This document shows, in pieces, positions 11,538 to 42,868 of a stretch of DNA of 64,000 nt (positions are counted from its first letter, which is position 1; each line of letters opens with the position of its first letter). The notes under the pieces are model-generated. The model did no database searches. It had not been told where the DNA came from and saw only the letters and a list, made by a program, of their open reading frames with translations. This stretch comes from an uncultured Verrucomicrobiales bacterium (GTDB lineage Bacteria; Verrucomicrobiota; Verrucomicrobiia; Verrucomicrobiales; DEV007). The translations under genes and the position numbers were made by a program. The DNA lies in the NCBI GenBank assembly GCA_938091905.1, contig CALKOM010000006.1, positions 44,009 to 108,008 of the forward strand. Reading direction: 5' to 3'.

Positions 11538-11547
11538 AACAGAGCAA

Positions 11548-15875: not shown

Positions 15876-16057
15876 GCTATTTCACCAGGCCGCTATCGGG
15901 CGTTATGGCAGCTTTTAGTAGCCAAAGTCTAGGACTAGGCAGCCAGCCAGTGACCAAGAACATCCACTATTGTTACCCAGCAAATTCGTGAGATTTGCTA
16001 GCCTAGGGCTTGGATTCTACAAATTGCACTGATAAGGTGACGGTCAGCCCTTTGCCT

Positions 16058-19246: not shown

Positions 19247-19258
19247 GCTGTTTACGAA

Positions 19259-20380: not shown

Positions 20381-20407
20381 GTGGAAAGGCTATGAAATAG
20401 GGCTAGA

Positions 20408-20529
20408 TTTGGAGTGCTGTGACCTGGCACAGCTTTGGATTATCTGCGGCAGTTGACGCAGCAAACGCCTCCAACTTCCATCGTAATACTCCCGCCCCAA
20501 TCCAAAGGGCTGCCAGATGAGCGCACTCC
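20408..20529. repeat. Degenerate inverted REP-like pair (REPIN-like)
   Basis: Left GGAGTGCTGTGACCTGGCACAGCTTTGGATT versus reverse complement of right GGAGTGCGCTCATCTGGCAGCCCTTTGGATT; left copy has an internal GCTGTG/CACAGC stem. Confidence 0.6.
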
Positions 20530-20651
20530 GTGAGCTCATCGAACAACGAGCTAGCGTTCATCTCGAGTGCGCCTATTTCCGTGCCATTCGGTCATAAGCG
20601 CGATGTTCCAGCGGTCAGTCTAGACCATGGGCCATCTGGGGCTAAGGTGTA

Positions 20652-23348: not shown

Positions 23349-23364
23349 CCCAACTCCCTGCACC

Positions 23365-26300
23365 ATGCGTCTTGCTTCTCTTCCTCATTGCTTAGTGATT
23401 GTTATGTTTCTTTCCGAAGTGTCTGCGGAGGTGATCATCTCAGAGTTCTTAGCTCGAAATGAGACTGGCCTGAAGGATGAGGATGGCCAATTGGCTGACT
23501 GGATTGAAATTGAGAATACCGGATCCGAGGCGGTCAGTCTTGAAGGATGGACCCTCACAGATAACCTGAATCGCCCGCGCAAATGGGATTTCCCGGCCGT
23601 GAGTCTGCCTGCAGGCGAGCGCCGAACGATTTTTGCCACGCGGAAAGATCGGAGTGGGCCGGAGGGTGAATGGCACACGAACTTCCGGCTATCGGCTCCA
23701 GGAGAAACGCTGGCCATCTTTATGCCTGATGGAGAAACCGCCGCCGATCAGATCGAAGCCGCGCCGCAGTTTGATGATATCAGTTTTGGGCGAGACGGCG
23801 TGACTGGGCACGTTGGCTATTTGGATAGGGTGACACCAGATGAAACGAACGGAAGTCTGGTCTATTCGGGTCCTGTGATCTCAGACGTCTCCTACGCGCC
23901 GGTTCCGTTGATGCCGGGTGACGATGTGGTGATCACGGCACGTGTGACGGCGCGGGAATCGGATATTCAAGAGGTGAAACTGCTATCAGTGGTTGCTTTT
24001 GGCTCGGTCGGCAATGGCATCACGATACGTGATGACGGCGAAGGCGATGATGCCGAAGCTGGAGATGGACTTTACACGGGCGTCATTTCTGGAAGAACGC
24101 TCTTTGGGCCGAAGGTCAAGGCGGGTGAAATGGTGCGCTGGGCAGTGACAGCGACAGATGCGAATAACGGTAGTTCGCGGCTGCCGACCTTTCTCGATCA
24201 GGAGGGTGTCGAGCAATCGCCAGAGTTCTTTGGTACGGTCGCTGCGGCGACGATCGATACGGAGCTGCCGGTATTTGAGTGGTACACGGGCGACGAACGC
24301 AACTCAGGCACTCGAACTGGGGCACGGGCCTCGGTGAGCTACAATGGGAATTTCTATGACAACATCTTTGTGAGAGCCCGGGGCGGAGCTACCAATGGGC
24401 AGTCGCAGAAATTTAACTTCAACAACGCTTTTCCGTGCTTCGTCGATGAAGATCTTCCCGCCGTGGGGGAGTTGAACCTCAATGCCCAGGGAGGAGATTC
24501 CACGCATTTAAGGCAACCGCTAGCTTTTGAGAGCTATACCTGGATTGGCAATGCAGCTTGCAAGTCATTCCTCACAGTGATGCGGTTGAATGGGAAAGAG
24601 GACCGCACGGGCGTTCTGATTGAGCAAGTCGATGAAGATTTCCTCGAACGTCATGGTTTCGATCCGCTAGGCGATCTCTACAAGATGGTGCAGAGATCGA
24701 ACTTGGATCCTGTCTTTGCTGATACGACCACGGGTATTGAGAAGAAGACGGGCGATCTGTCCGACCTAAGTACGTTCGCATCACTTGTTGAGGGGCTCGA
24801 TAAGGAAGACCAAGAGTTGAAGGCCTACATGTTTGATTCACTGAATTTGCCTCAAGTGTTCAATTACCTTGCTATGCGCTCCATTACGCAAGATGCGGAC
24901 GATGTGAGGAAGAATTTCTACGTCTACAATGATGTCTTAGATACTGGAGAATGGTCCATCTTTCCTTGGGACAAAGACTGGACTTTCGGCATCACGGGAG
25001 ATGGAGGCCAGCATTTGAAGCACCCTTTCTTTGCTGATCAAGCGCATCGCAAGGACAATGCCAACCAGTGGAACAAGCTCTATGAAGCCATCTTCAACGA
25101 TGCGACGACTCGGCAAATGTATTTGAGGCGTCTGCGCTCGGCGATGGATGCGACTCTCCAGCCTAGCGACACCCCAGAAGCGGAACTGCGCTTTGAGAGT
25201 CGTGTCGATGAACTCTTTGCCCAAGCGGAGGGCGATGTGCCGAGTAGTGGGCCAAGAACGGTGAAGCGCTTCTTTCCAGAGCGTCGTGGCGATCTCTACG
25301 AAACGTATTCTGGACTGATTCCGAGTGCCCAAGAGGCGATGCCGGCGATCCAGATTGGTGACGTCGAGTTCCAGCCTGCTTCAGGGAGGCAAGACGAGGA
25401 ATTTATTCAGTTGGTTAATAAGGCCCGAACCGCAGTGGATGTGTCAGGGTGGGAATTGGATGGAGCGGTGAAATTCACGTTTGCTGAGGGAACTGTCTTG
25501 GCAGCTCGCAGCTTGTTTGATCCGAGCATCTCGACGTCGCTCTACGTTTCCCCAAATGTGAATGCCTTTCGTGCGCGTTCGGAAAGTCCCACAGGAGGCG
25601 AGGCCCACTTTGTCCAGGGGCCGTATCGCGGTCATCTCTCCAATCGCGGCGAGACCATTGTCTTAAAGGATAGCGAGGGGAACATCATCGCAGAGAAGAC
25701 TTATGAAGGAAATCCTACGGATGTGGAGCGTTACCTTCTTCTGTCAGAAATCATGTACCAGCCTGCAGATCCTAACGGTGAGGCGGAGTTCATCGAACTC
25801 TACAATGCAAGCGATTCGGTGGAACTCGATCTCACGGGGTTGCGGTTCACGGATGGAATCGACTTCGCCTTTATGGAGGGAACGACGCTTGCGCCCAATG
25901 GGTACTTACTGATTGTCAGGAACCGAGCAGCTTTTGAAAGCGTCTATGGGGGCACGGTGCCGATCGCCGGGGAGTTTGCCAATCAATCACGTCTCAACAA
26001 CGCCGGCGAGCGGATCAAATTGGATAACGCCCTCAATAGTACGATCTTTGAAGTACGCTACAACGATAAGGAGCCATGGCCGACCGAGGCGGCTGGTATG
26101 GGATTGTCTCTCACTCTCGTGGAACCCGTCGCGGGCAGCGACTTCGAAGAAGTCGAGTCATGGCGGGCCAGCGCAGGCACTCCCGGGCAGCCTGCGGGCC
26201 CAGGTGGTGGCAATGATCTCCAAGATGTCGACAATGACGGAATAGTAGCTCTGCTAGAAGAGGCTTTCGGAACGAGCGACAATGATCCTGGCGCAGGGGC

Positions 26301-26541
26301 AGGTGCCGTTCGTGTCACTATTGAAAGCGACCGCCTGGTGGTGCGCGCCTCATTGGGGAACAGTGAGGGCATTGACCTGGCCTTGCAGACGTCTTCGGAG
26401 CTGACGGGTTGGGAAGACGGTGGCGATCGCTTTGCTCGGAGCGATGCGAACGGCTTGGCCATATGGACGAGCACGGTTGCGATTGGTGAAGCGGCGTTCC
26501 AAGCCATTCGTCTCGCGGCCACTCGACTTTTGGCTCCGTAA
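23365..26541 (+). CDS. Secreted LTD / CotH kinase family protein
   Basis: IISEFLARN...DWIEIEN; EQVDEDFL; DDVRKNFYVY; FPWDKDWTFG; two C-terminal LTDs. Confidence 0.88.
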   Translation: MRLASLPHCLVIVMFLSEVSAEVIISEFLARNETGLKDEDGQLADWIEIENTGSEAVSLEGWTLTDNLNRPRKWDFPAVSLPAGERRTIFATRKDRSGPEGEWHTNFRLSAPGETLAIFMPDGETAADQIEAAPQFDDISFGRDGVTGHVGYLDRVTPDETNGSLVYSGPVISDVSYAPVPLMPGDDVVITARVTARESDIQEVKLLSVVAFGSVGNGITIRDDGEGDDAEAGDGLYTGVISGRTLFGPKVKAGEMVRWAVTATDANNGSSRLPTFLDQEGVEQSPEFFGTVAAATIDTELPVFEWYTGDERNSGTRTGARASVSYNGNFYDNIFVRARGGATNGQSQKFNFNNAFPCFVDEDLPAVGELNLNAQGGDSTHLRQPLAFESYTWIGNAACKSFLTVMRLNGKEDRTGVLIEQVDEDFLERHGFDPLGDLYKMVQRSNLDPVFADTTTGIEKKTGDLSDLSTFASLVEGLDKEDQELKAYMFDSLNLPQVFNYLAMRSITQDADDVRKNFYVYNDVLDTGEWSIFPWDKDWTFGITGDGGQHLKHPFFADQAHRKDNANQWNKLYEAIFNDATTRQMYLRRLRSAMDATLQPSDTPEAELRFESRVDELFAQAEGDVPSSGPRTVKRFFPERRGDLYETYSGLIPSAQEAMPAIQIGDVEFQPASGRQDEEFIQLVNKARTAVDVSGWELDGAVKFTFAEGTVLAARSLFDPSISTSLYVSPNVNAFRARSESPTGGEAHFVQGPYRGHLSNRGETIVLKDSEGNIIAEKTYEGNPTDVERYLLLSEIMYQPADPNGEAEFIELYNASDSVELDLTGLRFTDGIDFAFMEGTTLAPNGYLLIVRNRAAFESVYGGTVPIAGEFANQSRLNNAGERIKLDNALNSTIFEVRYNDKEPWPTEAAGMGLSLTLVEPVAGSDFEEVESWRASAGTPGQPAGPGGGNDLQDVDNDGIVALLEEAFGTSDNDPGAGAGAVRVTIESDRLVVRASLGNSEGIDLALQTSSELTGWEDGGDRFARSDANGLAIWTSTVAIGEAAFQAIRLAATRLLAP

Positions 26542-26835: not shown

Positions 26836-29800
26836 TTACTGCTCAACGCCTCGGTAGTAGCCGGCAGCTCTTCCTAGGCGTGCGGCATCACTATCCTCGA
26901 AGTTGATCTCGCCTTGCAATCCGGGCTCGACTACCTCCCAGGTCTGCAAGTCTTGCGAGTACTCGATGTTGTAGGTCGTGTTTGCCGCGCCTGTGAAGGA
27001 GACGCCGATGCTGCCAGGGCCTGAGACAATGGCAATAACCGGTGCTTCTCCAGCTGGTGGCGGTTTGACTGGGCCCAATGTCAGGATCTGATTTAACGAT
27101 GCGCCAGAGGTGGCGAGCGTCACCACTTCGTCATTGGTCAGTGGGCGTGTCCAGAAGGCGATATCATCGATGAGGCCATTCCAGGTCCGGTCTGCGGTGT
27201 CTGGGTTCTGACCGATCATCATGGGCATTACATTATCCTCGAGAGTCGGCGCCAAGCCTTCCTCAACGAGCTCACCATCCACAAAGAGACGCACGGCGAC
27301 ATCGGGCTCACTTACGAGGGCGATATGATGCAGCTCACCATCATTCACATCGGGACCTTCTCTGGCAATGTCACCAGCGCCCCCATTGCCAACCAGGCGG
27401 TTTGTGTCGCCGCCCTGACGGTGGATGCGCCATTGATTCTGTTCCCCCTTCGCTGCCAAGGCTTGCCAGCCTTTATCAAATCCATCGACCCGAAACCAGG
27501 CCGATACGGTGAACCCTGTCGGATTGTCAGGGGCTCCAAAGTCGAACAGATCTTCATTCGCAAGCGGTGTTTCGATGTATTGACCGGCGCCATCGAGATC
27601 GACGCCTTGGCCAAAGGCACCTTCGGTGAAGGTGAGGTCTGCGGCGGGATGATCGGCGAGTAACTCGGGCATGTCTTGTTTGTCGCCGCCTTCCCAGACT
27701 TTGCCGACGCCATGGCTGTTGCCGGCTGTGTCCTGCAAGTCGCCGTCGAGCGGGTAATAGGCCACCAAGCCTTCCGCCAGCGAGCTGTTACCACTGCTTG
27801 GGAGGGCGCTCACTATGACGTTGTCGAACTGGATGGTTTCCGTGGCACCACCCGTGCGCGCACCAAAGGCGATCCGCATGGCAGGTGTCGCTTGGAAATC
27901 GTCGAGCGCCAACTTGTCGTAGATGGTCTCGCCATCGACAACCACGGTCACGCCGACACCCGGCTGATAAGTGATGCTAATCGGGTGAAATTCACCATCG
28001 AAGTTGTAGAAACGACTGTCTTTGATGTCTTCCCCATCTTCAAGACGCTGGATCTCAACGTCGTTGCCGTCGAGACTGACATCGATGCCAATGCCCGTGG
28101 CAGCGCCTTCACCACCATTGTTCCAGGTATCAAACTCCACTGCCAAGCCACTACTATGGCCTTCTTCACCAGCTGTGGCACCGTCATCGATTTCACCATA
28201 GTTGAAGGAGAACCCATCCGCAGGCTGACCTTCAGCTGCGAGTAGCAGATCCGCCTCAAAGACAAAGCCATCGGCGAGATCGGCAATAACCGGTAGTTTA
28301 TAGCTAGCGCTTTCACTTCCAACGCCATCTTCAGTGAGTTGCAAGGCTTGATCGACGATCTTCGTGGAGCCTTGATTACTGGAGAGAACAGAGCCATCTC
28401 TCAGATCGGTCTCATCATTCGCGTAGGCATCGAAGTTGTTCTCATAATGAATCGGCACGATCCCACCAGCATCGATCGATTGGATGAACTGCAAGGATAC
28501 ACCACTGAGAATAGCATTACCGTCAGCGAAGCCAGCATCCGTGCCGTTCAAGTCGATGACGACATCGCCGGCTTCGGTCTGATTGAATTCGTAAATGAGG
28601 TAGGCAGCAGAAGCACCACTATAGTCGCTTTCTTGGAACGCGTTCGGGCTGAAGGATTCAACGATATCTTCTCCATCCACTTTGACGAAGAAGCCGCGGT
28701 CGCAACACTTCTCACCAAAGATCATTTGTAAGCGATAGGCGCCGCGGTCCACATCCTTGAGCGTCACGACGACACCTGAGGGTTGGCCCGACCAGCGAAT
28801 ACCACTGGCGACCTTGGCCAGACCAATGCCTTCAGGCGAATCACCGAAGTTATTGGCTGCGGCCCAATCTTCGATGTGATTCGTTGCTTCGATTACAATA
28901 TTGTCAGGAGCTGGGGTGTCGGCGAGGAAGAGGATATCACCCACCTGCACGTCTTCTTCGGTCTCGGCCACATTGACCGCGTGGGTGAATGAACCGGTGA
29001 TGGTCAGATCACCGAGGGTGTCTTCGGCAAGTTTCCCCACGAGCACTTGCTCATGGATAGGCCCACCTTCCTGATTTCCAGGACTGTTAGGATCGAGAGG
29101 GTCGAAGCCGTTGGCCACTTCAAAAGAGTCGCTGAATTTGTCGCCATCGGTGTCACGATTGGTGGGACTCGTTCCAAATTCGGCTTCGCGGCCGTTGGTT
29201 AAGCCATCACGGTCATTGTCACCGTCTGAGAAATCGTTAGGGTCATTCCCGCTGGCAAGTTCAGCCGCATCTTCAAAGCCGTCATCATCGGAATCTACAG
29301 AGAGCGGGTTGGTCTCATGGATGTTCACTTCCGCTCCGTCTTCGAGACCATCGCCATCGGTATCGACCAACAAGGGATCCGTTCCAAGCTCAGCCTCCAG
29401 GTTATCGGCCAAGCCATCGCCATCGCTATCGATGGGCGCATTGTCGCCCACTGGCAGCGACAAGCCTGGGGAGTCTTTCAATTGACCGACTTCATCCGCC
29501 GTGATGATTCGATTGTAGATCTGCACATTATCAAAGGTGCCGTCCAGGGGCAGGCCCCCATTGTAAGAGCTGAACTGAAACGCGAAGGATCTGTTGTCCG
29601 TCAATACCAATGGATCTGGCAAGCTGTTAGCCACGCCATCGACATAGATAGTGGCGCTTCGAGCTTCCGGCGTGTTGTCATAAACGAGCACAATGTGATG
29701 CGCTTGCCCTGCGACTAAAACGTTCTCTGCTACGAACTCTGGATTCTCCCCGGCAGATTCTGGGAGCCACGCTAACGAGCTGTCTATGGCTAGAAGCGCG

Positions 29801-31182
29801 AAGGCTGGTGTGCCAATGTTACCTCGAGCGAAGACAGTCCCGACGTTGGCACTCAGGGCGTCTAGTTGCATCCATAACGAAACACTAAAGTTGTCCAGTG
29901 CTTCGATGCCTTCCACCACGAGTTCGCCGCCGCCGGAAGTCTTCAATGCGGTGCCTCCTGAGAGGCCCTCAGCACCAAGCTCAGCCGTGCCAGCTGGTAT
30001 GAGCAAAGTTCCGTTGTTTCCATTACCAGAAATATCGGCCACCTCGAGATTACCAATGGCCTCATCGAGCTGCAAATGGGTGAGTGGGCCAAGACGATTG
30101 ATCACACTGGCGGTCAAGGGAACCGTGATGGCGGTTTCGGTTTGGTCATTGCTAGTAATCTCCATCGTAGCATTGAACGCGCCCGTTCTGCCAGCCGGAT
30201 CAAAGCTCACCTCAAGCTCCGCTTTGGGTTCTGGTGCACCATCCACGCCAGTGTCGGCAGGCACCGTGACCGGCAATGCCGTCAGTACTGTGAAATGGGA
30301 GGCATCCGGGCCGGTGATCGCAATGCTAGAAACCTCCAAATCTGTGGTGGGTCCGGTATTGCGTATTCGAAACGTATTGACTGTCGCAGGTGTGGAGGAC
30401 ACCTGCCCGAACTTGAGTGCCGAGCCGGACAGCAAATTGGGGTCATCATCGCTGGTATTTAGCGTGTGCACCACCAAACCTTGAAGAATGGGATTGTTGT
30501 CCCCACCCAACTGATCTTGGCCACCAATGTGTTGTTGCATGATGATATTAAGTTCGCCATCACCTGAGGCTTCGAATTCTCCCACATACACAAAGGTGTT
30601 CTCAGGAGACCAGGCATCAGGATCTTCGTTGGTGCCTTCAGAAGTGAAATCGTCCACTGTTAAGACATCATTGACCGAGATGTCCCAGTGCCGATCACGA
30701 TCGGCACCTTCATTGACTAAGATTTGGACTTCGTAGAGGCCGCCACCATCGAGACCGGACACATCCATGGTTAAAGGGCTAGGTGCTGCTGACCAACGGA
30801 TGTCCTCCATGATGGCAGACAGATTGTCCGCCGAATCGCCATCACCACCGCTGAAGCCTGGTGCTGCGGCCCAGCCATCGATAAAGTGTGTGGATGTCAA
30901 GTCGACCCGCACGCTTTCGCGTTCTACCAAGCCGATGGTATTGTCATCCGTCTTATCAGTTTGAAAGAGGACGCCGTTGACTTCGCGATCTTCATCCCCA
31001 AAGACATCCACAGCGACCACGACAGTGTCAGGGTCGAGATGCAATTCATCGGGGCTGGTGATTTGGAGGATCCTGCCGTTGCCATCGTCTTCATTGAGAA
31101 CGATGGTCTCGGCAGCTAGCGGTGTTGTGTGAACGATAAGAAATGTCGTCAACATCACCTTGAGTGAGAGGTGTAGTTTCAT
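26836..31182 (-). CDS. Large secreted multi-domain lectin/adhesin-like protein (two LamG domains, Ig-like domain, thrombospondin type-3 Ca-binding repeats, legume-lectin-like domain)
   Basis: Signal peptide; FSVSLW...HHIVLV...YVDG...GTFDNVQIYNR; DSDGDGLAD/DTDGDGLED repeats; ADGFSF...AVEFDTW. Confidence 0.8.
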   Translation of the reverse strand: MKLHLSLKVMLTTFLIVHTTPLAAETIVLNEDDGNGRILQITSPDELHLDPDTVVVAVDVFGDEDREVNGVLFQTDKTDDNTIGLVERESVRVDLTSTHFIDGWAAAPGFSGGDGDSADNLSAIMEDIRWSAAPSPLTMDVSGLDGGGLYEVQILVNEGADRDRHWDISVNDVLTVDDFTSEGTNEDPDAWSPENTFVYVGEFEASGDGELNIIMQQHIGGQDQLGGDNNPILQGLVVHTLNTSDDDPNLLSGSALKFGQVSSTPATVNTFRIRNTGPTTDLEVSSIAITGPDASHFTVLTALPVTVPADTGVDGAPEPKAELEVSFDPAGRTGAFNATMEITSNDQTETAITVPLTASVINRLGPLTHLQLDEAIGNLEVADISGNGNNGTLLIPAGTAELGAEGLSGGTALKTSGGGELVVEGIEALDNFSVSLWMQLDALSANVGTVFARGNIGTPAFALLAIDSSLAWLPESAGENPEFVAENVLVAGQAHHIVLVYDNTPEARSATIYVDGVANSLPDPLVLTDNRSFAFQFSSYNGGLPLDGTFDNVQIYNRIITADEVGQLKDSPGLSLPVGDNAPIDSDGDGLADNLEAELGTDPLLVDTDGDGLEDGAEVNIHETNPLSVDSDDDGFEDAAELASGNDPNDFSDGDNDRDGLTNGREAEFGTSPTNRDTDGDKFSDSFEVANGFDPLDPNSPGNQEGGPIHEQVLVGKLAEDTLGDLTITGSFTHAVNVAETEEDVQVGDILFLADTPAPDNIVIEATNHIEDWAAANNFGDSPEGIGLAKVASGIRWSGQPSGVVVTLKDVDRGAYRLQMIFGEKCCDRGFFVKVDGEDIVESFSPNAFQESDYSGASAAYLIYEFNQTEAGDVVIDLNGTDAGFADGNAILSGVSLQFIQSIDAGGIVPIHYENNFDAYANDETDLRDGSVLSSNQGSTKIVDQALQLTEDGVGSESASYKLPVIADLADGFVFEADLLLAAEGQPADGFSFNYGEIDDGATAGEEGHSSGLAVEFDTWNNGGEGAATGIGIDVSLDGNDVEIQRLEDGEDIKDSRFYNFDGEFHPISITYQPGVGVTVVVDGETIYDKLALDDFQATPAMRIAFGARTGGATETIQFDNVIVSALPSSGNSSLAEGLVAYYPLDGDLQDTAGNSHGVGKVWEGGDKQDMPELLADHPAADLTFTEGAFGQGVDLDGAGQYIETPLANEDLFDFGAPDNPTGFTVSAWFRVDGFDKGWQALAAKGEQNQWRIHRQGGDTNRLVGNGGAGDIAREGPDVNDGELHHIALVSEPDVAVRLFVDGELVEEGLAPTLEDNVMPMMIGQNPDTADRTWNGLIDDIAFWTRPLTNDEVVTLATSGASLNQILTLGPVKPPPAGEAPVIAIVSGPGSIGVSFTGAANTTYNIEYSQDLQTWEVVEPGLQGEINFEDSDAARLGRAAGYYRGVEQ

Positions 31183-31234: not shown

Positions 31235-33148
31235 TCAATCATCAACGACTTGCGGCTCTACAATATGTAACTTTTGCGTATTCGGTGTGCCCACTTGTTG
31301 CCGCACGCCGCTAGGCCACAGGACTTCCACTTGTGTTGCCTTTGTGTCACCAAGCCCGAAGTAGAGAGGTAACACCCCGTGCGAGAGGTAACCCGTGACG
31401 CCATCGTGCACTTTGGTGTAGGTCTTCGAATTCGTCGTATGCACCTTCACGATCGCCCCGAGGCCATCACGATTGGATTGCGAGCCTTGTAAGGTGATCC
31501 TGAGTGACTGCACCGTGTGCTTCGCCGTCAGATTGCTGACCAAAACCATGGGCCCGTCGCCAAATTCATTGGTGACAATGTCTAGATCGCCGTCGTTCTC
31601 CAAATCAAAGATGGCCGAACTACGCGACCCTAACGCTGCCCATACTTCGACCGGCTTCGTGAGGCTGTGATCTTTCACCAAGCCGTGGTCTTTGTCATCA
31701 CCAGTGGGATCAAGCGTGAACCAAGGCTTCGCAGTGCGCTCGTCCCGACGAGGTTCCACGCCGAGGATGAATTCGGTGTCTAAGAAGGACTGGCCTTGAT
31801 TGTTTAGCAACACACTGTTCACGCCATAGCGGAAAGGGAAATTCATGCTCGCGGTGATGAAGACATCGTTCCAGCCATCCGCATTGAGATCTCCGACTGA
31901 GAGCCCCCAAGGCCAGTAGTTTTCAGTGCCGAGTCTATCAGAGATCTCATCGAAAGCTCCGTCAGCTCGGCCTTGGAAGAAGGTGTTGCCAAAGACGCTA
32001 GCGGCTTTCTCGCCAACCATGGATTCCGGCCAGCGCATCATCGACTTCAGTTTCTCCTGGTTCGGGCCTTGGGCTTCGCTCATGTCTGAATGCATGTCCG
32101 TCACAAAGAGGTCCATGAGGCCATCATTGTTGTAGTCCAAGGATTTGATGCCCATGGCACCCCAGGAGGTCTTTGGGAAGCGTTCCGCCGTGCGGCGCTC
32201 GAAGCGTTTGCCGTTCACGTTCTCGTAGAACTCGTCTGGCCCTTGCATGTTCGTTACGTAGAGATCTGGCCAGCTATCGCCATTCGGATCGATCGGGCTG
32301 GCATCGCCGGTCCAACTCACGTCGTTTAGCTCCATGGCGGCGGACACTTCCTTGAATCGGTTGCCGCCAAGATTGTGATAGAGAAGGCTGCGCTCATTGC
32401 GTTCCTCCGGTTTCAAATGACCGGCAAAGGCGTCATCCACACCGAGGTGGTAGCCACCTTCTCCGCGCTGATCCGGCTTGGTGTAAACGCCCACGTTGCA
32501 GACAAAGAGATCGAGCAGTCCGTCTCTATCGTAGTCAAAGAACACGCCCGCAGAAGAATGTCCCTTGTGGCCAAGTCCGGCTTGTTTGGTGCGATCAGTG
32601 AAACGCCCTTGGCCATCGTTTTCGAAGAAATGATTCCCATCCCGTACGGTGCTGACGAAGAGATCGGGATCGCCATCGTTGTCGGTGTCTGCAAACGAAG
32701 CTGCGACACAAACTTTATTTCCAAGGGCGATGTTAGGCGTGGTGATGTCTTTGAACTTTCCGCCACCGACATTCTTCCAGAGGCCATTGGAGCCGATTTG
32801 GTTGGTGAAGAAGAGATCGATCAAGCCATCGCCATCCACATCAGATGGGGCAATGCCATTTCCGTGATCGTAGTGCACCGGTTTGTGCAGTTTGGCTGAA
32901 TCAGCCACGATCTGGTTCACGAAGGTGATCCCACTTGCGGCTACTTCATCGCTGAACTTAAAGTCATGGTAGACAGCGAACGAAGGGGTGCTGGCTAGCT
33001 GTAGCTGCTTCCGCGCTTCCATCCAATTCGGCTTCATCACGTCTGGAGGATAGGGAAACGGCTCCATTCCCCGAGCGACCGGGACCAGGAAACATGCCAA
33101 TGCGAGCCAGGACTCTAGACTTGGAAAGGGAGAGGTGGCTTGTTTCAA
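31235..33148 (-). CDS. CRTAC1-family FG-GAP + ASPIC/UnbV protein (start uncertain)
   Basis: Multiple DxDxDGxxDL repeats; SNRDGLGAIV...GYLSH...LYFGLG...EVLWPSG. Confidence 0.9.
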   Translation of the reverse strand: MKQATSPFPSLESWLALACFLVPVARGMEPFPYPPDVMKPNWMEARKQLQLASTPSFAVYHDFKFSDEVAASGITFVNQIVADSAKLHKPVHYDHGNGIAPSDVDGDGLIDLFFTNQIGSNGLWKNVGGGKFKDITTPNIALGNKVCVAASFADTDNDGDPDLFVSTVRDGNHFFENDGQGRFTDRTKQAGLGHKGHSSAGVFFDYDRDGLLDLFVCNVGVYTKPDQRGEGGYHLGVDDAFAGHLKPEERNERSLLYHNLGGNRFKEVSAAMELNDVSWTGDASPIDPNGDSWPDLYVTNMQGPDEFYENVNGKRFERRTAERFPKTSWGAMGIKSLDYNNDGLMDLFVTDMHSDMSEAQGPNQEKLKSMMRWPESMVGEKAASVFGNTFFQGRADGAFDEISDRLGTENYWPWGLSVGDLNADGWNDVFITASMNFPFRYGVNSVLLNNQGQSFLDTEFILGVEPRRDERTAKPWFTLDPTGDDKDHGLVKDHSLTKPVEVWAALGSRSSAIFDLENDGDLDIVTNEFGDGPMVLVSNLTAKHTVQSLRITLQGSQSNRDGLGAIVKVHTTNSKTYTKVHDGVTGYLSHGVLPLYFGLGDTKATQVEVLWPSGVRQQVGTPNTQKLHIVEPQVVDD

Positions 33149-36100
33149 TGGGGGATCAGAATAGAACTAACAGTCGCATGCAGTTTCGTCATCCTAGCTC
33201 TCCTTGCGGCGTGTGGCGATGGTGAAAAGGCTGTTTCTGGATCCAAGCGCCGTGATTCGCCAGCTCCTCGCAAGGCAGAGATCACTTTCGGGGAAATGGG
33301 CATTCAAGGGCCGAGCGATAGCCGCGATTGGCCAACAGAAAGCTTCACGGAGCAAGCGAACAAGCAGCTATTTCGACTGAAGGCCTACTTCAAAGGACAG
33401 GCGGATTGGCCAGCCGACATGGTTTCAAAGGCGGTTGCTGACACGGTGTTGCGCCCATCCGCTCTGCAGACAGTTCTCGAAGATGACCACTTCTACATTC
33501 AGCGGGGAACGGGCGGAGATGGCGATACTCTGAGGGATCTTGCCGCTCCCTATCAATCAGAATCTCGGCACGCCAAGTTCAAGATATTTGATGTCCGGCA
33601 GGAATCCAGGAGGGTTCAGACGAAGATCGCTGCGAGTTTGTCAGGGAAGACGGATCGTGGTTCGCAACAAGAGACCTCGACTTGGGAGGTAGCGTGGTCA
33701 CTCGATTCTGACCCGCAGATACTGATCATCGAGCTTCAAGAGTATGAGGTGAGCCTAACGAAACGCTCGCAAACAGGAAGCGCGTTTCAGGATGCGACTG
33801 AGGCGGTGTTTAAAGACGTGGCCGCTTATGGCGATCAGTTAGCCTATGGGGTCGATCACTGGGCGACGCGAATCGAAGCCGCTTTCGGCATTGGTGTGTC
33901 CGGTTGGGAAGGTCTCGCCTTGGGTGATGCGAATGGCGACGGCCTCGACGATCTCTACGTGTGTCAACCCGGCGGATTGCCAAACCGCCTCTTTATAAGG
34001 AAGCCGGACGGCACGGTGTTTGATGCTTCATCCTTCGCTGGCGTCGATTGGCGTCTGCAGACGCAGTCCGCTCTCTTTGTGGATTTGGACAACGATCATG
34101 ACCAAGACCTTGTTCTCGGCACGACTTTGGGCTTGATCCTCATGGCGAACGACGGTCGCGGCACGTTCACGGTGAAAGCTAGCCAGTTGATTCCGGAAGG
34201 TGCAGCCATGAGTTTATCGAGTGCTGACTTCGATCTCGATGGGGATTTGGATATCTACGTTACCAGTTATTCTCGCCGCCGCAGCATGAGTGGCGGGACA
34301 ACGTTGTTAGGGCGTCCAATGCCTTATCACGATGCCAACAACGGCAGTCGCAACGTTCTCTTTCGCAATGATCGGGAGTGGAAATTTAACAATGCGACAG
34401 TGGAGCTCGGGTTGGATGAGAACAACAGGCGGTTCAGTTTCGCAGCCTCCTGGGAGGACTACGACAACGATGGCGACCCTGATCTCTATGTGGCGAATGA
34501 CTACGGTCGCAACAATCTCTATCGCAATGACAGGGATGAAGAAGGGTGTCATCAATTCGTCGATGTGGCCGCGCAAGCCGGCGTCGAAGATATCTCCGCA
34601 GGCATGTCCGTCTCTTGGGGTGACTATGATGCGGATGGTTGGATGGATCTGTATGTAAGCAACATGTGGTCTTCAGCGGGAAACCGCGTGGCCTATCAGA
34701 GGCAGTTTCAATCGGGAGCTGACGCAGAAACATTGGTGGCGATGCAGCGGCATGCGCGAGGCAATTCCCTCTTCAGAAACTTGGGTGATGGAACCTTTCA
34801 GGATGTGAGTGTGCATCAAGGTGTCACTCTGGGTCGTTGGGCATGGGGTTCGCGCTTCGTGGATCTGAACAGTGACGGCTGGGAAGATTTGTTCGTCGCG
34901 AACGGTTTCATCACCCAGCCGGATGACTCCGGTGACTTGTGAAGCTTCTACTGGCGCCAGGTCGTGGCGCAATCGCCGGTCGACGAAGTTCGCCCGGAAG
35001 AGGCTAAGGACTACCTGGGGAATTGGGACGCTCTCAGTACGATGATCACGCGAGGGCGCTCCTTCAGTGGTCGCGAACGTCACTGCGCCTTTCTCAATAC
35101 GCGAGGCCAATCGTTCGCAAATGTGTCAGGTGGAACGGGGCTCGATCTCATCGATGATGGCCGTGGCCTAGCTGTGTGCGATTGGGACAACGATGGTGAT
35201 CTCGATCTTTGGATAACCCAGCGCAATGGGCCCCGAGTCCGTTTCTTGCGCAATGAGCTTTCTGAGAATGTGAATGCGTTGTCTGTTCGTTTAGAAGGCG
35301 CTACTTGCAACCGCGATGCCATTGGTGCTCGGGTTCTTGCGGAGACATCGAGTGGCCGGAAGCTTGTACGCACGTTGCGAGCAGGCGATAGCTTTCTTAG
35401 TCAATCTAGCAAACTCCTACACTTTGGGCTGGCCTCAAGCGAAACGGTTCTCTCACTCGCGGTGAGCTGGCCAGGGGAAACCCAACCCGAAACCTTTCCT
35501 ATAGATGGCATGAGCGCCTGTCTCCTCGTGCAAGGGGCGGGAGTTTCTAAACCCGAAGACCGCAAACGATCTCCAGAGCCGCTGGCGAGTTCGGTTCCAA
35601 AGGCACCTGATTCTCCGGACAGTTGGCGCTTGGTGCTCTTGCATCGGAAAGAGTTGCCCGAGATCAAGTATGTAGATTTCGAAGGCGATCTGAGGGCGCT
35701 CGAACCCAATGGTCCAACGTTGGTCACCCTATGGGCGAGTTGGTGCGCTCCATGTCTGAAAGAGTTAACAGCTCTTGCCGAAGCTGAAGAGACGTTTGGG
35801 GCGAAGAACCTCAGGATCGTCGCACTCTGTACGGATGCGCTGGTGGACGGCGATGCCAGAGCAGATTTCGGTCCAGCCAAGGCTTTGGTGGCCAAATCTG
35901 GCTATCCGTTTGACCTTGGATTGGTCGATGCCGGTGGGGCTCAAGCGCTGTCAGGGATCCACTACCGCACGCTCGCGGTGCAACGGCCTTTATCCCTGCC
36001 CTCAAGTTTCCTAACGGACGCGTCAGGTCGAATTGGCGTTCTCTATCAGGGACCAGTCAGCGTGGATCAATTGCTTGCGGACATTGATCTGCTAGGATCA

Positions 36101-36946
36101 TCTGGAAACGTAATTGAAGCCGCCGCCTTTCCATTTCCAGGTCGCAACGGCGTCGAGCACTTCACGTTGACACCGTTGACCTTTGCCCAAGCGTACCACA
36201 CCAGTGGGGACAGTGATGCCGCTCGTGCCTATCTCAGCGAACAATTGGCTGAACGCGAAGGAACGCTGAAAGAACTCTACTTCCTCGGCACCTTAGAACA
36301 GTCACAAGGCCACTGGGAAGCCGCTGTGGTTGCTTATGGGAAAGTGCTTAAACGTTCCCCTCAGCATCCTGCGATCCGTGTCCCTCTGGGCGTGGCCCTT
36401 TGGAAGACTGGTCGCTTATCCGAAGCCAAGGAGCACTTCAATGTGGCCGAGGCTCTCGGTCCCGAAAGACCAGCTGTCTGGGCGGAGCTCGGTCGTGCCC
36501 ATCTTCAGATAGGTTTGCCCGCAGACGCGGTGACCTATTTCAACAAAGGCGGTCATCGCCAATTCGCTGCCAAAGCCTTGTTGGCGGCTGGTCAAGGGAA
36601 GCGGGCTGTAGCGATTTATGAAACGCTGTTGAAAGAGAATCCACAAGCTCACCAAGTGAAGAATGATCTCGCCTGGATCCTGGCAACACATCCAGAGATT
36701 TCGGTTAGAAATGCAAAGCGTGCACTCGACTTGGCAAATCAGTTAGCAAAGCTCTCGGGATTTCGAGATTTGTATGTCCTTGATACCCTGAGCGCTGCTC
36801 AAGCGAATACGGGAAATTTTGAAGAAGCGATCAAGCAGGCGACGACGGCCCGTCGGCTGGCACGGGCCGTCGGCCTCACCAAGCTGGCGGAAGAGATGAG
36901 CGACCGGCTTCGAGCCTATCGAAGCAAACAGCCTTTCCGGAAGTAA
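33140..36946 (+). CDS. FG-GAP / ASPIC-UnbV / TlpA-like redoxin / TPR lipoprotein, one frame with an internal TGA at 34940-34942 (candidate selenoprotein; otherwise two CDS 33140-34942 and ~34964-36946)
   Basis: LAAC lipobox; FG-GAP repeats on both sides of ...SGDL*SFYWRQVV...; NRDAIGARV...SQSS...HFGL; WASWCAPC; TPR-like helices. Coding status is secure, readthrough is inferred. Confidence 0.7.
34943..34990 (+). promoter_or_regulatory. Candidate bacterial SECIS hairpin
   Basis: 11 nt after TGA: GCGCCA-GGTCG-TGGCGC; lower pairings ACTG/CGGT and AGCTTC/GAAGTT. Confidence 0.55.
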
Positions 36947-37315: not shown

Positions 37316-37723
37316 ATGACGAAACGGCAACCGTTGTCAGATGGCGAAACCGAGCTGATGAAGTCCGTGTGGACGCTTGTAGAAGCTACTGTTCCGAATC
37401 TTGTGTTGGCGCTCAATAAGCGGCGGCAGGAAGATCCCATCACTCGTGGGACAATTCAGGTCTTGCTGAATCGGATTGAAGCGAAAGGATGGCTCAACCG
37501 AAAGAAGGTAGGCCGCGGCTACGTCTATGAGGCTAGTGTATCCGAAGCGGATGGACTTGCTGAACTAGCATCACAGTTTCGAGCTAAAGTTTTTGATGGG
37601 TCTTTCCTCCGCTTAGTGCAATCGCTAGTAAATGCGAATGGCCTGAAGAAAGAGGACATCGCTCATCTGCGTGCGCTTCTTGATCGAACAGAAGCCTCTC
37701 TCAAAGAAAGGAAAGGCAAATGA
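37316..37723 (+). CDS. BlaI/MecI/CopY family transcriptional repressor
   Basis: LSDGETELMKSVW...TIQVLLNRIEAKGWL...GRGYVY...FDGS. Confidence 0.92.
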   Translation: MTKRQPLSDGETELMKSVWTLVEATVPNLVLALNKRRQEDPITRGTIQVLLNRIEAKGWLNRKKVGRGYVYEASVSEADGLAELASQFRAKVFDGSFLRLVQSLVNANGLKKEDIAHLRALLDRTEASLKERKGK

Positions 37724-38382
37724 TCGACTCAATATTCTAGCGGTTTTCAGAGCACAGCGTGGCGCTTGCGCTCGGACCCTTTCTTCTCGTGGCGGTAGCC
37801 GCGCCTGCGCTGCGATATGCGAACAGGCCTTCAATAGCGGCCAGGGCTCTTGTGCCTATTCTTCTAGCGGCTCCATTGTTGCTCTTGTTAGTTGATTCTG
37901 TAGCTCCGCCTGATTCGGCACTTTTCATGGCAGCAGTAGATACGGTCGCTCTTGGTGAAGCTGAGACTTCAAAACTATCAGCAAATGGAGTCGTAAATCG
38001 AATCGTGATCGGAGCTGCACCAAAGCTGATCGATTGGCTGGGCATGATGCTCGTGACCTGGTCCGTAGGTAGTTTATTGGGGCTGATCTGCTTGGGACGA
38101 GATCTCTTTCGTCTACACCAGCATTTCAAAGGGCTGCAGGAACTTCCTGATAGTGACGCTGCGAAGCTAACAGTCGACGTCGCCACCCATCTTCTTTATT
38201 GTATGTCTGTTATTAATACTTGCTCGTTCTGTTTTTGTAAACGTCTCCCCACTGTGCCGTGCAATCTGATTGCGGAAACGCCGTCTGCTCAGCTCGATTG
38301 TATCGTGTGGCATGAAGAGAGTCCTCTCTGTCCCCGATACGTGCAGTTCATGGACTGGAGATATGGATCGGAGATCGCGTGA
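37720..38382 (+). pseudogene. Decayed BlaR1/M56-like sensor
   Basis: ATGA overlap with the repressor stop; in-frame TAG at 37738-37740; TM segments; HExxH eroded to 'IVWHEESP'. Confidence 0.6.
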
Positions 38383-39623: not shown

Positions 39624-40574
39624 CTACTCTTCGATGAAGAGTTGCTTCTGACGTCGCCGAAGGTGGCGGTCTTTGGGGAGGTTGACCTTGGCGGTCTCTG
39701 TGTCAGGGAGGATAAGCGTGCGAGCGCGTTCGATGAGATCGAAATCAACATTGCTCACCTTCTGACCTTTCATCCAGAGGAAGAGTAGGCGTCTTTGTAA
39801 GGCGAGCGGTAGTCTACGGAGGTTGGGGACGGAGAGTGTGGTTTGCTCTGCATCGGCTTGAACGAGGCTGTCCAAGTAATCGCTCTCTGCGGACGTTTGC
39901 TCGGCGAGCCTGGCGACGGCCGTGCGAACATCGCGTTTAAAGGTATCCGCGAGTTGAGGAATCAACTCGTGCCTGACACGGTTGCGAAGAAAGGTGCGGT
40001 CGTCGTTGGAAGCGTCCTCACGGAACGGCCATTTCTCTTGGGAGGCTTGCTCAAGGATTTCGCTGCGCCAGATGCCTAGCAAGGGGCGATAGATTTCCAG
40101 GCGCTTCTTGCCGATGGTTTGGGTGGAGGCTTCGCGCATGCCTCCGAGACCGCTGGATCCTGCGCCGCGGAAGAGGCTCATGAGGACGCTCTCGACCTGA
40201 TCGTCGGCATGGTGAGCGAGAAAGAGGCGAGGACAGCGATGCTCCCGCGCTACTTGGGTAAAGAACGCGTAGCGGGCAGTTCTAGCAGCGGTTTCGATCG
40301 ATTGCTTGCTGGCTTTGGCAAGTTTGGTGACGTTCTCGCGGGCGATGACGGCTGTGTAGTCCAACCGCTCTGCGAGTTTCCTGACAAACGTGGCATCTGC
40401 GGTGGATGCCCGGCCGCGCAGGCCATGGTTGAGATGGGCGACGACGAGCTTGCGATAGCCCAACTCATGAAGCAGGCGCAGGAGGACAACTGAATCGGCA
40501 CCGCCAGAGACTCCGATGAGGTAGCGGCGAGTGACCGCATGCTGTTCAGGGAGTTGGCGCAGCGCCTCAATCAC
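39624..40574 (-). CDS. tilS: tRNA(Ile)-lysidine synthase
   Basis: GVSGGADS, HLNHGLRG, ARTARY, AHHADDQVE, RPLL, RNRVR; start set to the GTG just after the serS stop. Confidence 0.95.
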   Translation of the reverse strand: MIEALRQLPEQHAVTRRYLIGVSGGADSVVLLRLLHELGYRKLVVAHLNHGLRGRASTADATFVRKLAERLDYTAVIARENVTKLAKASKQSIETAARTARYAFFTQVAREHRCPRLFLAHHADDQVESVLMSLFRGAGSSGLGGMREASTQTIGKKRLEIYRPLLGIWRSEILEQASQEKWPFREDASNDDRTFLRNRVRHELIPQLADTFKRDVRTAVARLAEQTSAESDYLDSLVQADAEQTTLSVPNLRRLPLALQRRLLFLWMKGQKVSNVDFDLIERARTLILPDTETAKVNLPKDRHLRRRQKQLFIEE

Positions 40575-40582
40575 GAGCCAAA

Positions 40583-41860
40583 CTAACGGATCTCCGTAGC
40601 CCCCCGAAGGTAAGGTTGGAGTGGCTCTGGGATCTTGATAGAGCCGTCTGGCTGTTGCCACGTCTCGACGAGCGCGACGTATAAACGTGGAAGCGCGAGG
40701 CCGGAACCGTTTAAGGTGTGGCAGAAGCGATTTTTCTTCGTCTCGGCGTCCTTGAAGCGCAGGTTCATGCGGCGCGCTTGGTAGTCGTAGAAATTGCTAC
40801 AGCTGGAAACTTCAAGGTAACCGTTGTGGCCGGGAGCCCAGACTTCGAGATCGTAGGTCTTGGCGGCAGAGAAACCGAGATCACCCGTGCAGAGCTCGAT
40901 CACGCGATAATGAAGCCCTAACAGTTGCAGGGCTTTCTCGGCATGACCGGTGAGGTCCTCGAGTGCTTGAGTGGAGTTGTCAGGGTGGGTCATTTGCACG
41001 AGCTCCACCTTGTCAAACTGGTGCATGCGGATGAGACCCTTGCTTTCACGGCCGGCAGAACCTGCTTCGCGGCGGAAGCAAGGGGTGTGGGCTGTGTATT
41101 TGATGGGAAGGTCCGCTTCGGGAACTATTTCTTCACGGCGTAGGTTGGTCACGGGGACCTCTGCCGTGGGCGCGAGAAAGAAGGCGCCGCCTTCGAGATC
41201 GTACATGTCGTCCTCGAATTTAGGGAGCTGACCGGTGCCGAACATGCATTCGCGACGCACGAGGTAGGGCGGGCTGATTTCGGTATAGCCGTGCTCTTCG
41301 GTTTGCAGGTCGAGGAGAAACTGAATGAGCGCACGCTGCAGGCGAGCGCCTTTGCCTGTGAAGACGACATAGCCCGAGCCGGAGAGGGTGGCTCCTGCTT
41401 CGAAATCAAACAGGCCCAACTCACTGCCTAGGGTGACGTGATCTTTGAGATCTTCCGTGTGTGGCTTGGCATCGCCCCAGGTGCGTGTTTCTGGATTGGC
41501 CGTTTCGTCTTGGCCGACCGGGCAATCCGCATGAGGCATGTTCGGAATGCTCAGGAGGACATCGCGTTGTTGGGTCTCTGATTCTAGCACTTGCTCGTCG
41601 AGTGCTTTGATCGATTCGCCAATCGTCCTGACATTGGCTTCGATTTCAGAGGTGTCCTGACCATCCTTACGCAACTTGCCGATTTCCTTGCTCGTTTGAT
41701 TGCGTTCTTGCTGCAATTCTTGGCGCTTGGTCTCAGCCTGACGGCGTGTTTGGTCGAAGGCGAGGACTTCATCGACAAGGCCAGGATAGTCTCCGCCACG
41801 TGTTTTCACACGGGCTTTCACCTCCTCTGGTTGGTCGCGGAGTAGTCGGATATCGAGCAT
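40583..41860 (-). CDS. serS: Serine--tRNA ligase
   Basis: MLDIRLLR start; GTGQLPKF, PTAEVP, FRREAGS, RMHQFDKVE, EVSSCSN, HTLNGSGLA. Confidence 0.98.
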   Translation of the reverse strand: MLDIRLLRDQPEEVKARVKTRGGDYPGLVDEVLAFDQTRRQAETKRQELQQERNQTSKEIGKLRKDGQDTSEIEANVRTIGESIKALDEQVLESETQQRDVLLSIPNMPHADCPVGQDETANPETRTWGDAKPHTEDLKDHVTLGSELGLFDFEAGATLSGSGYVVFTGKGARLQRALIQFLLDLQTEEHGYTEISPPYLVRRECMFGTGQLPKFEDDMYDLEGGAFFLAPTAEVPVTNLRREEIVPEADLPIKYTAHTPCFRREAGSAGRESKGLIRMHQFDKVELVQMTHPDNSTQALEDLTGHAEKALQLLGLHYRVIELCTGDLGFSAAKTYDLEVWAPGHNGYLEVSSCSNFYDYQARRMNLRFKDAETKKNRFCHTLNGSGLALPRLYVALVETWQQPDGSIKIPEPLQPYLRGATEIR

Positions 41861-41941
41861 GCGCGACCGTAGCTTATGGCCTTCAAAAGGAAAGCCGTTT
41901 TCCGGCGAGACCCTAGGCAGGACATGCGCTAGACTGGGCCC

Positions 41942-42868
41942 ATGCCGGAGTTTCGCCCTCACCTTTCTGACTGGGAACCATGTCCCTATCTGCCAGTGCC
42001 GCACGAGCCGCTCACGCACCTTGTCATGGCACCCTTTGGCAAAGGCCGTGGCGAGGACTTTTATGAAACGGCGCTGACCTATGCGGGGTCGCTGTGGTTG
42101 CAGGGCTTGCCAGCTCGTAGTCTGCTGTTGATCAATCGGGCGCTCGGTGCGGATCTCACGGGCGATGAATCCATCCTTGAGACGTGGCCACTGCCTTATG
42201 CGGCCGTGCGTTGGATCTTGGAAAATCGCGTCGACGACGAGGCTCATTTCATTGGTAATCCGCGACGTCACTATCAGCATCTAGCCACACGCATGGTGCC
42301 TCCACGCAAAACACAACGCAGTTGGCGTGCGTGGGCGTGTTGGTATCTCTCGGTGCAAGTGCTCCCGTCCGAAGATTATCCGGCCGACGAACTCCAGATT
42401 CGCAATGAGGGTGTTGTCGAACCGACACCGGCACAGATTGGTGAGGCGTTGGAGTCTCATGGCATTTCGGGAGAACGAGTACTTTGGGAACGTGTCTCTA
42501 ACAAGACCGAAACCGTGGTTGTGCTTGGTGCGAGTGATCGGCCGGAGCGCTATGCGCACAAGGCGATCCTTCAGCTGATGGATCATGGGCTCCAGGTTAT
42601 TCCCGTACATCCGCGATTGAAAGAAGTGGCGGGTTTGTCGGTAATGGCAACGCTAGACACCGTGGAAGCTCCGGTGGACACGGTGACGTTGTATGTAAAT
42701 CCGAAGATCTCGGAGCCGATGGCGAATGCCCTTGTCGCGCTCAAACCACGGCGCGTGATCTTCAATCCTGGGACCGAGTCAGCTGAGCTCTCTGCGCGAT
42801 TGCAACAAGCTGGCATCGCGACCGAGGATGCGTGCACCTTGGTCCTGCTAGCAACGGGCCAGTATTAG
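41942..42868 (+). CDS. Hypothetical N-terminal domain fused to a CoA-binding (YccU-like) domain
   Basis: C-terminal VVVLGASDRPERYAHKA...PVHP...VDTVTLYV...RVIFNPGTE...ACTLVLL. Confidence 0.8.
   Translation: MPEFRPHLSDWEPCPYLPVPHEPLTHLVMAPFGKGRGEDFYETALTYAGSLWLQGLPARSLLLINRALGADLTGDESILETWPLPYAAVRWILENRVDDEAHFIGNPRRHYQHLATRMVPPRKTQRSWRAWACWYLSVQVLPSEDYPADELQIRNEGVVEPTPAQIGEALESHGISGERVLWERVSNKTETVVVLGASDRPERYAHKAILQLMDHGLQVIPVHPRLKEVAGLSVMATLDTVEAPVDTVTLYVNPKISEPMANALVALKPRRVIFNPGTESAELSARLQQAGIATEDACTLVLLATGQY

Follow-up and report, generated by a model that had tools for sequence, protein, structure and literature searches.

A 64,000-nucleotide (nt) stretch of DNA from an uncultured Verrucomicrobiales bacterium (here called the window; coordinates are positions within it, 1 being its first letter) contains an in-frame TGA at 34940..34942 (+) that is very probably a selenocysteine (Sec) codon, which would make 33140..36946 (+) a single gene of 1268 codons followed by a TAA stop. 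The product is predicted to be an exported protein in which Sec601 opens a helical insertion in an FG-GAP beta-propeller, upstream of UnbV/ASPIC, thioredoxin-like and TPR domains. A hairpin resembling a selenocysteine insertion sequence (SECIS), GCGCCA-GGUCG-UGGCGC, lies at 34954..34970 (+), with a 6-bp stem, an 11-nt spacer and a UGA-to-loop distance of 17 nt. Taken by itself, the window does not exceed chance, since its hairpin folds like shuffled sequence, whereas the comparative data do, and it is the comparison with homologues that settles how the TGA is read. In view of this comparative evidence, Sec decoding is strongly supported, and the case is one of standard bacterial Sec recoding in a family with earlier candidates.

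An in-frame TGA conserved across four phyla

Two open reading frames (ORFs), 33140-34942 (600 aa) and 34964-36946 (660 aa), flank the codon. An earlier note on this DNA, made from the sequence alone, had placed them in one frame joined by the TGA, and its coordinates proved exact. The frame bounded by TAA/TAG runs from 33119 to 36946 and holds a single in-frame TGA. Its first start codon is the TTG at 33140, the true start codon being uncertain, and when TGA is read as U the translation has 1268 residues; the only U is residue 601, flanked as ..SGDL-U-SFYWRQVVAQ... No other TGA of the window lies between two long open frames, which here measure 607 and 667 codons. Of the 33 long ORFs in the window, nine end in TGA, and none of the other genes has an in-frame TGA; since the codon serves as an ordinary stop in these nine ORFs, there is no general reassignment.

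The DNA comparison consisted of one scan of representative genomes, with 79 loci listed, among which the source genome is not included. The aligned codon is TGA in 12 of the 79, or in 13 if a distant paralogue with its TGA one column off (L031) is counted, so that TGA is not peculiar to this assembly, a point that the earlier note had proposed to settle by tabulating the codon. The TGA loci span Verrucomicrobiota, Planctomycetota, Acidobacteriota and Gemmatimonadota (two each assigned to Akkermansiaceae, Roseibacillus and Verrucomicrobiales, and one each to Phycisphaerae, Planctomycetota, Pirellulaceae, Vicinamibacteria, Acidobacteriota and Gemmatimonadetes). Among the 14 best-scoring loci of those listed, ten have TGA at the site and the remaining four have GCG, AAC, TCC and GAG; locus L073 has TGT. 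Neither TAA nor TAG was found at the aligned site in any of the 79 listed loci, and the 3' stops of the same TGA genes are TAA in three, TAG in three and TGA in three, four genes being incomplete.

Protein records display the same interruption. Of the best 120 N-terminal homologues (67-98% identity, about 550-680 aa, FG-GAP domains only), 119 have '..DL' at the site as their C-terminus; these are known as protein only, from records that do not give the identity of the stop codon. Named relatives of this half belong to Verrucomicrobiales and Akkermansiaceae. The best 120 C-terminal clusters (39-98% identity) all start 3-61 residues past the site, and the GTG codon of residue 609 is the annotated start in 74 of them. 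These sequences show that the stop is conserved and that it is TGA in every case with DNA, and they indicate that the interruption is ancient and widespread across a large clade. Because it is so widespread and both halves are intact, a pseudogene or sequencing error is excluded. The TGA is one base away from the Cys codons TGC and TGT of close homologues, as would be expected of a nonsense mutation, a possibility that the earlier note had raised, but the comparative data refute it: besides the stop shared by these 119 homologues, four phyla have the TGA in 12-13 independent loci, an open frame of 667 codons follows it here and is kept at up to 98% identity elsewhere, and the 67-98% range of identities excludes copies of one erroneous sequence. 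We assign a nonsense mutation, a pseudogene or an assembly error a negligible probability. In an unrooted tree of 244 N-terminal regions, the Sec forms make up one very large clade and several scattered lineages; outgroup rooting of this tree failed, the label 'paralogue' not being monophyletic.

Unsplit full-length homologues (45-61% identity) have the same architecture, although as a set they are biased because gene callers stop at TGA. Among the 120 homologues listed, the residue at the site is N in 27, L in 18, S in 15, E in 11, C in 9, D in 9, G in 7, H in 5, A in 4, I, Y and Q in 2 each and R in 1, two being unaligned; the 18 with L and the two with I belong to a distant paralogue group. 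Cys, found in these nine and in 8 of the 96 non-TGA rows of the family alignment, is also the residue of the closest unsplit homologue among those listed (P0013, 61% identity).

The distant paralogue mentioned above (L031, from a Planctomycetota metagenome-assembled genome) has its TGA at 625-627, after '..TETEDL', and the peptide that follows, LSLVIEGV, is a different one. Some 24 nt past that TGA the sequence could form a GCGUC-GGUC-GACGC hairpin, which does not belong to the minimum free energy (MFE) fold. This locus may be an independent Sec form and was counted only as a possible thirteenth.

Translation across the TGA

Between the TGA and GTG 34964, the earliest codon at which translation could restart, lie seven codons for the conserved residues SFYWRQV (34943..34963, +). 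The eight closest loci encode S-F-F/Y-W-R-Q-V in this stretch, and six of its seven codon columns contain synonymous variants (AGC/AGT, TTT/TTC, TAC/TAT, CGC/CGG/CGA, CAG/CAA, GTC/GTG/GTT) with the residue kept in most sequences (alignments A3 and A6). The SFFWRQVV motif is conserved in the unsplit homologues as well. Synonymous variation with kept residues, in a motif common to unsplit homologues, implies that the seven codons are selected as protein, and this pattern of substitution shows the codons immediately past the TGA to be translated. The GTG at 34964-34966 is the codon of the conserved Val609 and spans the junction between the loop and the 3' arm of the hairpin, which suggests that its use as the start of a 'second gene' is a systematic annotation artefact.

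Two genes are nevertheless called everywhere, with this GTG as the start of most C-terminal halves (see above), and the pairing of a conserved stop with a conserved start 21 nt further on is formally consistent with translational coupling. The TGA could then be a true stop in a conserved split gene that encodes a 600-aa FG-GAP lipoprotein and, from GTG 34964 and perhaps by coupling, an ASPIC/thioredoxin/TPR protein, the hairpin modulating re-initiation. Such an arrangement leaves unexplained why the residues between TGA and GTG are conserved through synonymous variation and match the unsplit SFFWRQVV, why TGA is the codon in all 13 cases with DNA though the real ends use all three stops, and why close homologues have Cys at the site. 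The cut would fall within the propeller, at the start of a helix in the structural model, and would leave the thioredoxin-like/TPR half without a signal peptide, though its TlpA-like domain is expected to be extracytoplasmic; the GTG itself is partly buried in the 3' arm of the hairpin. We therefore consider a split gene very improbable and read the two halves as one protein.

A SECIS-like hairpin downstream of the TGA

The hairpin is composed of GCGCCA at 34954-34959, the loop GGTCG at 34960-34964 and TGGCGC at 34965-34970. It is present in the MFE fold and begins exactly 11 nt after the TGA, in agreement with the earlier note, whereas the lower stems by which the note had extended it are not predicted: the MFE fold of the region consists of the 6-bp hairpin and a separate downstream hairpin. 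The 66-nt region does not stand out from its dinucleotide shuffles (z = 0.11; 106 of 200 shuffles fold as well or better), and 6% of the window's own synonymous recodings produce a hairpin that folds as well.

To control for the coding constraint, each gene was recoded 1000 times with synonymous codons drawn according to its own codon usage. In every one of the 13 TGA genes the native hairpin exceeded the average recoding in stability: a fraction of 0.006-0.209 of the recodings was at least as stable (0.06 for the window), and the Fisher-combined p was 7.8e-7 for these 13 genes, which are not phylogenetically independent. In four sense-codon orthologues the corresponding fractions were 0.90, 0.13, 0.64 and 0.91. 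At the level of sequence, this control shows that the hairpin is under selection specifically in TGA genes.

Covariation in the hairpin, for which the earlier note had suggested a test, was found in the subfamily of the window. Across its eight sequences 95.8% of cells pair, compared with 19-65% in slid registers, and one pair is compensatory, formed by the Arg wobble base and the first base of the codon three positions past the loop (GU in three, CG in two, GC in two and AU in one); the observed pairing or covariation was reached by 11 of 500 shuffles. In a second subfamily, of four sequences, the stem is another one, displaced by one column, and its loop is GGUC; covariation there is uninformative, as 500 of 500 shuffles equalled the observed value. 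A single structure forced on all 13 TGA sequences was rejected, with 65.4% of cells paired and no advantage over shuffles; one register fails on this set because the two subfamilies use stems one column apart. A covariance model built from the eight sequences (R1) and run over 973 kb found, beyond its training set, the orthologous site in L071 (a non-TGA orthologue, 29.6 bits), L020, L008, L057, L027 and L007, and nothing else under E 0.5; as evidence it adds little and mostly tracks the conserved codons.

The earlier note had likened the element to that of E. coli fdhF, and the E. coli sequence confirms the likeness. In K-12 fdhF (formate dehydrogenase H, Sec140) the first nucleotide of the upper stem is the 12th past the UGA, which gives the same 11-nt spacer as in the window, and the apical loop GGUC is closed by A-U, also as in the window, with a UGA-to-loop distance of 18 nt against 17. 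In the E. coli fdhF SECIS the upper stem carries a bulged U, and the UGA region is part of a lower stem. The window element is fdhF-like but not of the strict E. coli type.

The bSECIS criteria call for a loop of 3-9 nt, a stem of 4-16 bp, a G in the first two loop positions, a spacing from the UGA of 16-37 nt and an MFE of at most -7.5 kcal/mol (PMC13188914). With its 5-nt GGUCG loop, 6 bp, a spacing of 17 nt and -11.4 kcal/mol, the window hairpin passes all four of these published criteria, as do 11 of the 13 TGA genes in a 27-nt sub-window.

Earlier candidates and the weighing of the Sec reading

The earlier note had presented the gene as a candidate new selenoprotein, and full novelty does not hold. 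A supplementary table of 2016 (Table S9 of PMC4807772) contains four ASPIC/UnbV/FG-GAP selenoprotein candidates, listed as the IMG gene pairs 2643313947/8, 2643315136/7, 2643315207/8 and 2643291570/1; all four are recorded as neighbouring genes with an in-frame UGA between the halves, and three were positive in bSECISearch. According to the same paper, both Planctomycetes genomes that carry them have full Sec-insertion gene sets. Its main text does not mention the four. Their domain content is that of the window protein, while orthology and an identical Sec site are assumed from the description. In the portions covered, the candidates appear in the table only, where no alignment, SECIS analysis, functional inference or account of phylogenetic breadth accompanies them and Gly is given as the closest-match residue.

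Among catalogues, a 2026 review tabulates 119 prokaryotic selenoprotein families (PMC13188914), and the examined part of its family table includes no FG-GAP, VCBS, ASPIC/UnbV, CRTAC1 or TPR protein. Such domain terms are likewise absent from the main texts and examined supplements of deep-Sep (PMC12013277) and BSepDB (PMC13326102). Full-text literature searches for selenoproteins with FG-GAP, ASPIC or UnbV domains returned nothing relevant, and the main texts of PMC5029168, PMC2398784, PMC9312934 and PMC9402790 do not mention the phyla or domains searched. The family is absent from the catalogues searched, has been flagged once as a candidate and is systematically mis-annotated.

Decoding of the UGA as Sec, which the earlier note had proposed as the simplest reading, is supported by the conserved TGA, the ends of the homologues, the Cys forms and the hairpin tests. 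A number of observations weigh in the other direction. Homologues differ widely in the residue that aligns with Sec (N, S, E, D, G, H, A, Y, Q, R), which is mostly not Cys, a pattern unusual for a catalytic Sec, and the stop of the 119 homologues recorded as protein need not be TGA. The window hairpin by itself is not significant, the conserved WRQVVA codons fix most of its letters, and the covariation in its subfamily rests on a single pair in eight sequences. It differs from the fdhF element in its 5-nt loop, without a bulged U and without a lower stem, and Rfam gave no match in 34800-35150. Among the TGA genes, L003 lies outside the loop criterion and L057 is short of the energy threshold by 0.1 kcal/mol, whereas the non-TGA orthologue L071 has a comparable hairpin (-9.4 kcal/mol). 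With respect to the machinery, none of the 32 window ORFs of at least 200 aa matched a sel gene, as the earlier note had observed, and no tRNA gene was found in the 64-kb window, which contains none of selA, selB, selD and tRNA-Sec; a tRNA search, and that search only, detected no tRNA-Sec in the flanks of 18 loci.

One long protein could also arise by readthrough of the UGA without Sec, by a near-cognate Trp or Cys tRNA or a suppressor, the hairpin acting as a general stimulator. The site tolerates many residues in homologues, and the abstract of PMC13462651 reports UGA-to-Trp reassignment in some Verrucomicrobiota. The use of TGA as an ordinary terminator in this window, however, speaks against a reassigned codon, and among the closest relatives the sense codon found instead is for Cys, never for Trp. 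The position and size of the hairpin and its GGUC loop fit the SelB-type SECIS model and fdhF, the Sec forms uniquely retain the redox cysteines described below, and the Planctomycetes with like candidates have complete Sec gene sets, as given in the covered portions of PMC4807772. Readthrough without Sec is, on balance, improbable, and we retain Sec as the reading of the UGA.

Protein architecture and structural model

The domains follow one another in the order N-terminal beta domain, FG-GAP propeller, UnbV/ASPIC domain, TlpA-like WCxxC thioredoxin domain and TPR repeats. The putative N-terminal signal (33140..33214, +) includes a lipobox-like LLAAC (Cys25), read from the translation as ..LLAAC-G. 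In a crude motif test, 70 of 120 N-terminal homologues contained a lipobox-like motif compared with 0 of 120 C-terminal halves, and a hydrophobic stretch was present in two of the latter; this bears out the earlier statement that only the upstream part has an export signal. Judged from these motifs, the product is probably exported and lipid-anchored.

The CRTAC1-like FG-GAP/VCBS propeller, at about residues 230-715 (33827..35284, +), was recognised by Pfam (FG-GAP_3, 2.9e-36, 124.3 bits against a cut-off of 26.9) and in the structural model, where it is interrupted by the helical insertion starting at Sec601. DxDxDG motifs of the FG-GAP type lie on both sides of the TGA, as the earlier note had said of the repeats. 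The UnbV_ASPIC domain covers residues 727-782 (35318..35485, +; PF07593, 48.1 bits against a cut-off of 23.4). A TlpA/ResA-like thioredoxin-fold domain follows at residues 855-974 (35702..36061, +), with WCAPC (Cys869, Cys872) at 35744-35755; the Pfam scores for AhpC-TSA (25.7 against 26) and Redoxin (25.3 against 26.6) are both slightly under their cut-offs, and those for the NCBIfam TlpA and DsbE models are far under theirs. The C-terminal TPR superhelix, at about residues 1015-1260 (36182..36919, +), matches Pfam TPR families and is helical in the model from residue 1012 on. None of the NCBIfam selenoprotein models scored over its cut-off against the 1268-aa protein (WAxxUGC_long, 20.2 bits against 300).

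An AlphaFold2 model of residues 69-1268, with the TGA read as Cys and an alignment of 102 rows, had a mean pLDDT of 92.9 and a pTM of 0.89. In this model residue 601 opens a helix (601-611) that is followed by a second long helix (619-637), the pair being predicted to form an insert between two strands of the propeller; the earlier claim that Sec lies in this domain and not in the redoxin motif is thereby upheld. WCAPC comprises residues 868-872, and Cys869 and Cys872 are predicted at the N-terminus of a helix that begins at C869/A870, in thioredoxin-like fashion. The top fold match in the PDB was murine CRTAC1 (9etn_A; E 2.3e-20, TM (target) 0.69, 611 aligned columns), which was also the only match in a PDB sequence search; other fold matches were TPR superhelices and a Bacillus thiol-disulfide oxidoreductase (4nmu_A, TM (target) 0.75).

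The propeller of the FG-GAP type followed by a UnbV_ASPIC domain is common to the window protein and murine CRTAC1, at 16% identity, whereas the bacterial protein adds the N-terminal beta domain, the Sec-bearing helical insertion, the thioredoxin-like domain and the TPR region; the title of the 9etn entry does not call CRTAC1 a selenoprotein. Catalogued selenoproteins with a TlpA/AhpC-TSA-like domain share the redox motif and, presumably, the extracytoplasmic location. They carry Sec within the thioredoxin motif (UxxC, UGC), whereas the window protein has an ordinary WCxxC and its Sec 268 residues upstream, in the propeller.

Redox correlates of the proposed Sec601

All ten Sec loci extending into the thioredoxin-like domain keep the CxxC motif, as do all 120 best C-terminal halves. 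By comparison, it is kept in 28 of 88 full-length homologues with neither Sec nor Cys at the site, the others having SxxC (23), SxxS (7) and further variants, and in three of eight Cys forms (Fisher p 3.4e-5 for the association with Sec forms). The association is suggestive and not proven, because some of the nearest non-Sec neighbours also keep CxxC and the Sec forms fall mostly in one clade.

A further cysteine, Cys649 (codon at 35084..35086, +; RERHC, at the start of the next propeller strand), occurs in 108 of 120 best C-terminal halves and in 10 of 87 homologues with neither Sec nor Cys at the site. It was ruled out as a universal partner of Sec: only the subfamily of the window has it, the more distant Sec forms lack it, and it is accordingly a feature of that lineage. 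At alignment position 184, in the N-terminal beta domain (window 33690-33692), Cys is present in 86% of Sec-lineage N-terminal halves and 11% of non-Sec homologues; the window itself has Val.

As the Sec forms always keep CxxC and Sec sits at the N-terminus of a helix, we infer an extracytoplasmic redox role in which Sec601, as a putative redox-active selenol, would be coupled to the CxxC domain of the same protein; this assignment draws on sequence and model, is correlative and is phylogenetically confounded. As an alternative, Sec601 could act as a soft-metal ligand.

Neighbouring genes

Divergent from the gene lies a complete CRTAC1-like paralogue of 637 aa (31235-33148, -) with FG-GAP and UnbV_ASPIC domains and without an in-frame TGA, the SFFWRQVV insertion or a thioredoxin or TPR part, so that Sec and non-Sec members of the family stand head to head. 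Apart from paralogues, no conserved neighbour is common to the window and the listed loci. Directly 3' of the selenoprotein gene, 37316-38382 (+) encodes a BlaI/penicillinase-repressor regulator (135 aa) and then a 207-aa ORF without a Pfam family. Elsewhere in the window are three consecutive proteins (16010-26541, +; 1078, 898 and 1077 aa) with CotH kinase, lamin-tail (LTD) and chitobiase C-terminal/Fn3-associated domains, a 1448-aa protein with laminin-G, TSP3 and lectin domains (26836-31182, -), and a PVC-type haem-binding protein, which together with the named relatives of the N-terminal half indicates Verrucomicrobiota.

The serS ORF (40583-42280, -) has 140 codons upstream of its match to the SerRS model and a 79-nt overlap with the tilS ORF (39624-40661, -), and its real start is probably internal. 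SerRS also charges tRNA-Sec; nothing in the window ties serS to the TGA finding. In a Gemmatimonadetes metagenome-assembled genome (L009), an array of 17 tRNA genes (11174-13799, -), with no tRNA-Sec among them, is located some 3 kb downstream from the Sec-form homologue.

Discussion

By analogy with E. coli, a SelB-type elongation factor carrying Sec-tRNA(Sec) would bind the hairpin 11 nt after the UGA through its apical loop GGUCG, and Sec would be inserted at the UGA in place of termination. The resulting 1268-residue protein would be exported and probably lipid-anchored, and the Sec601 redox centre would work with, or be recycled by, the CxxC of the fused thioredoxin-like domain; in the lineage of the window, Cys649 may serve as a resolving partner. 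This chemistry would have been given up in homologues whose residue at the site is N, S, E, D, G, A or H, in line with their often degenerate CxxC.

The discovery of bacterial selenoproteins is limited by gene callers that stop at UGA. In the public records seen, this family of about 1200 residues is always split into a 'VCBS/FG-GAP repeat protein' and an 'ASPIC/UnbV / TPR / thioredoxin' half, and its recognition would correct hundreds of annotations. It would also add a selenoprotein with Sec outside the thioredoxin motif, at a site where the non-Sec relatives mostly lack Cys, and provide the first testable chemical hypothesis for the CRTAC1/ASPIC-UnbV family, whose function is obscure. The matches listed include a Verrucomicrobiaceae isolate, which offers a cultured carrier for experiments.

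In a wider reading, which we put forward tentatively and hold to be somewhat short of an even chance, these proteins would form a large and abundant class of extracytoplasmic selenoenzymes in Verrucomicrobiota, Planctomycetota, Acidobacteriota and Gemmatimonadota, with a catalytic Sec at a helix N-terminus on a CRTAC1-type propeller, serviced in cis by a TlpA-like CxxC. If so, the ASPIC/CRTAC1 propeller, a non-thioredoxin fold, can host a redox active site, and the homologues with Asn, Ser, Glu and the like and a degenerate CxxC would be de-selenised, catalytically retired forms. Because the gene is systematically annotated as two proteins, the selenoproteome census would then be missing a major selenium sink of marine and soil bacteria.

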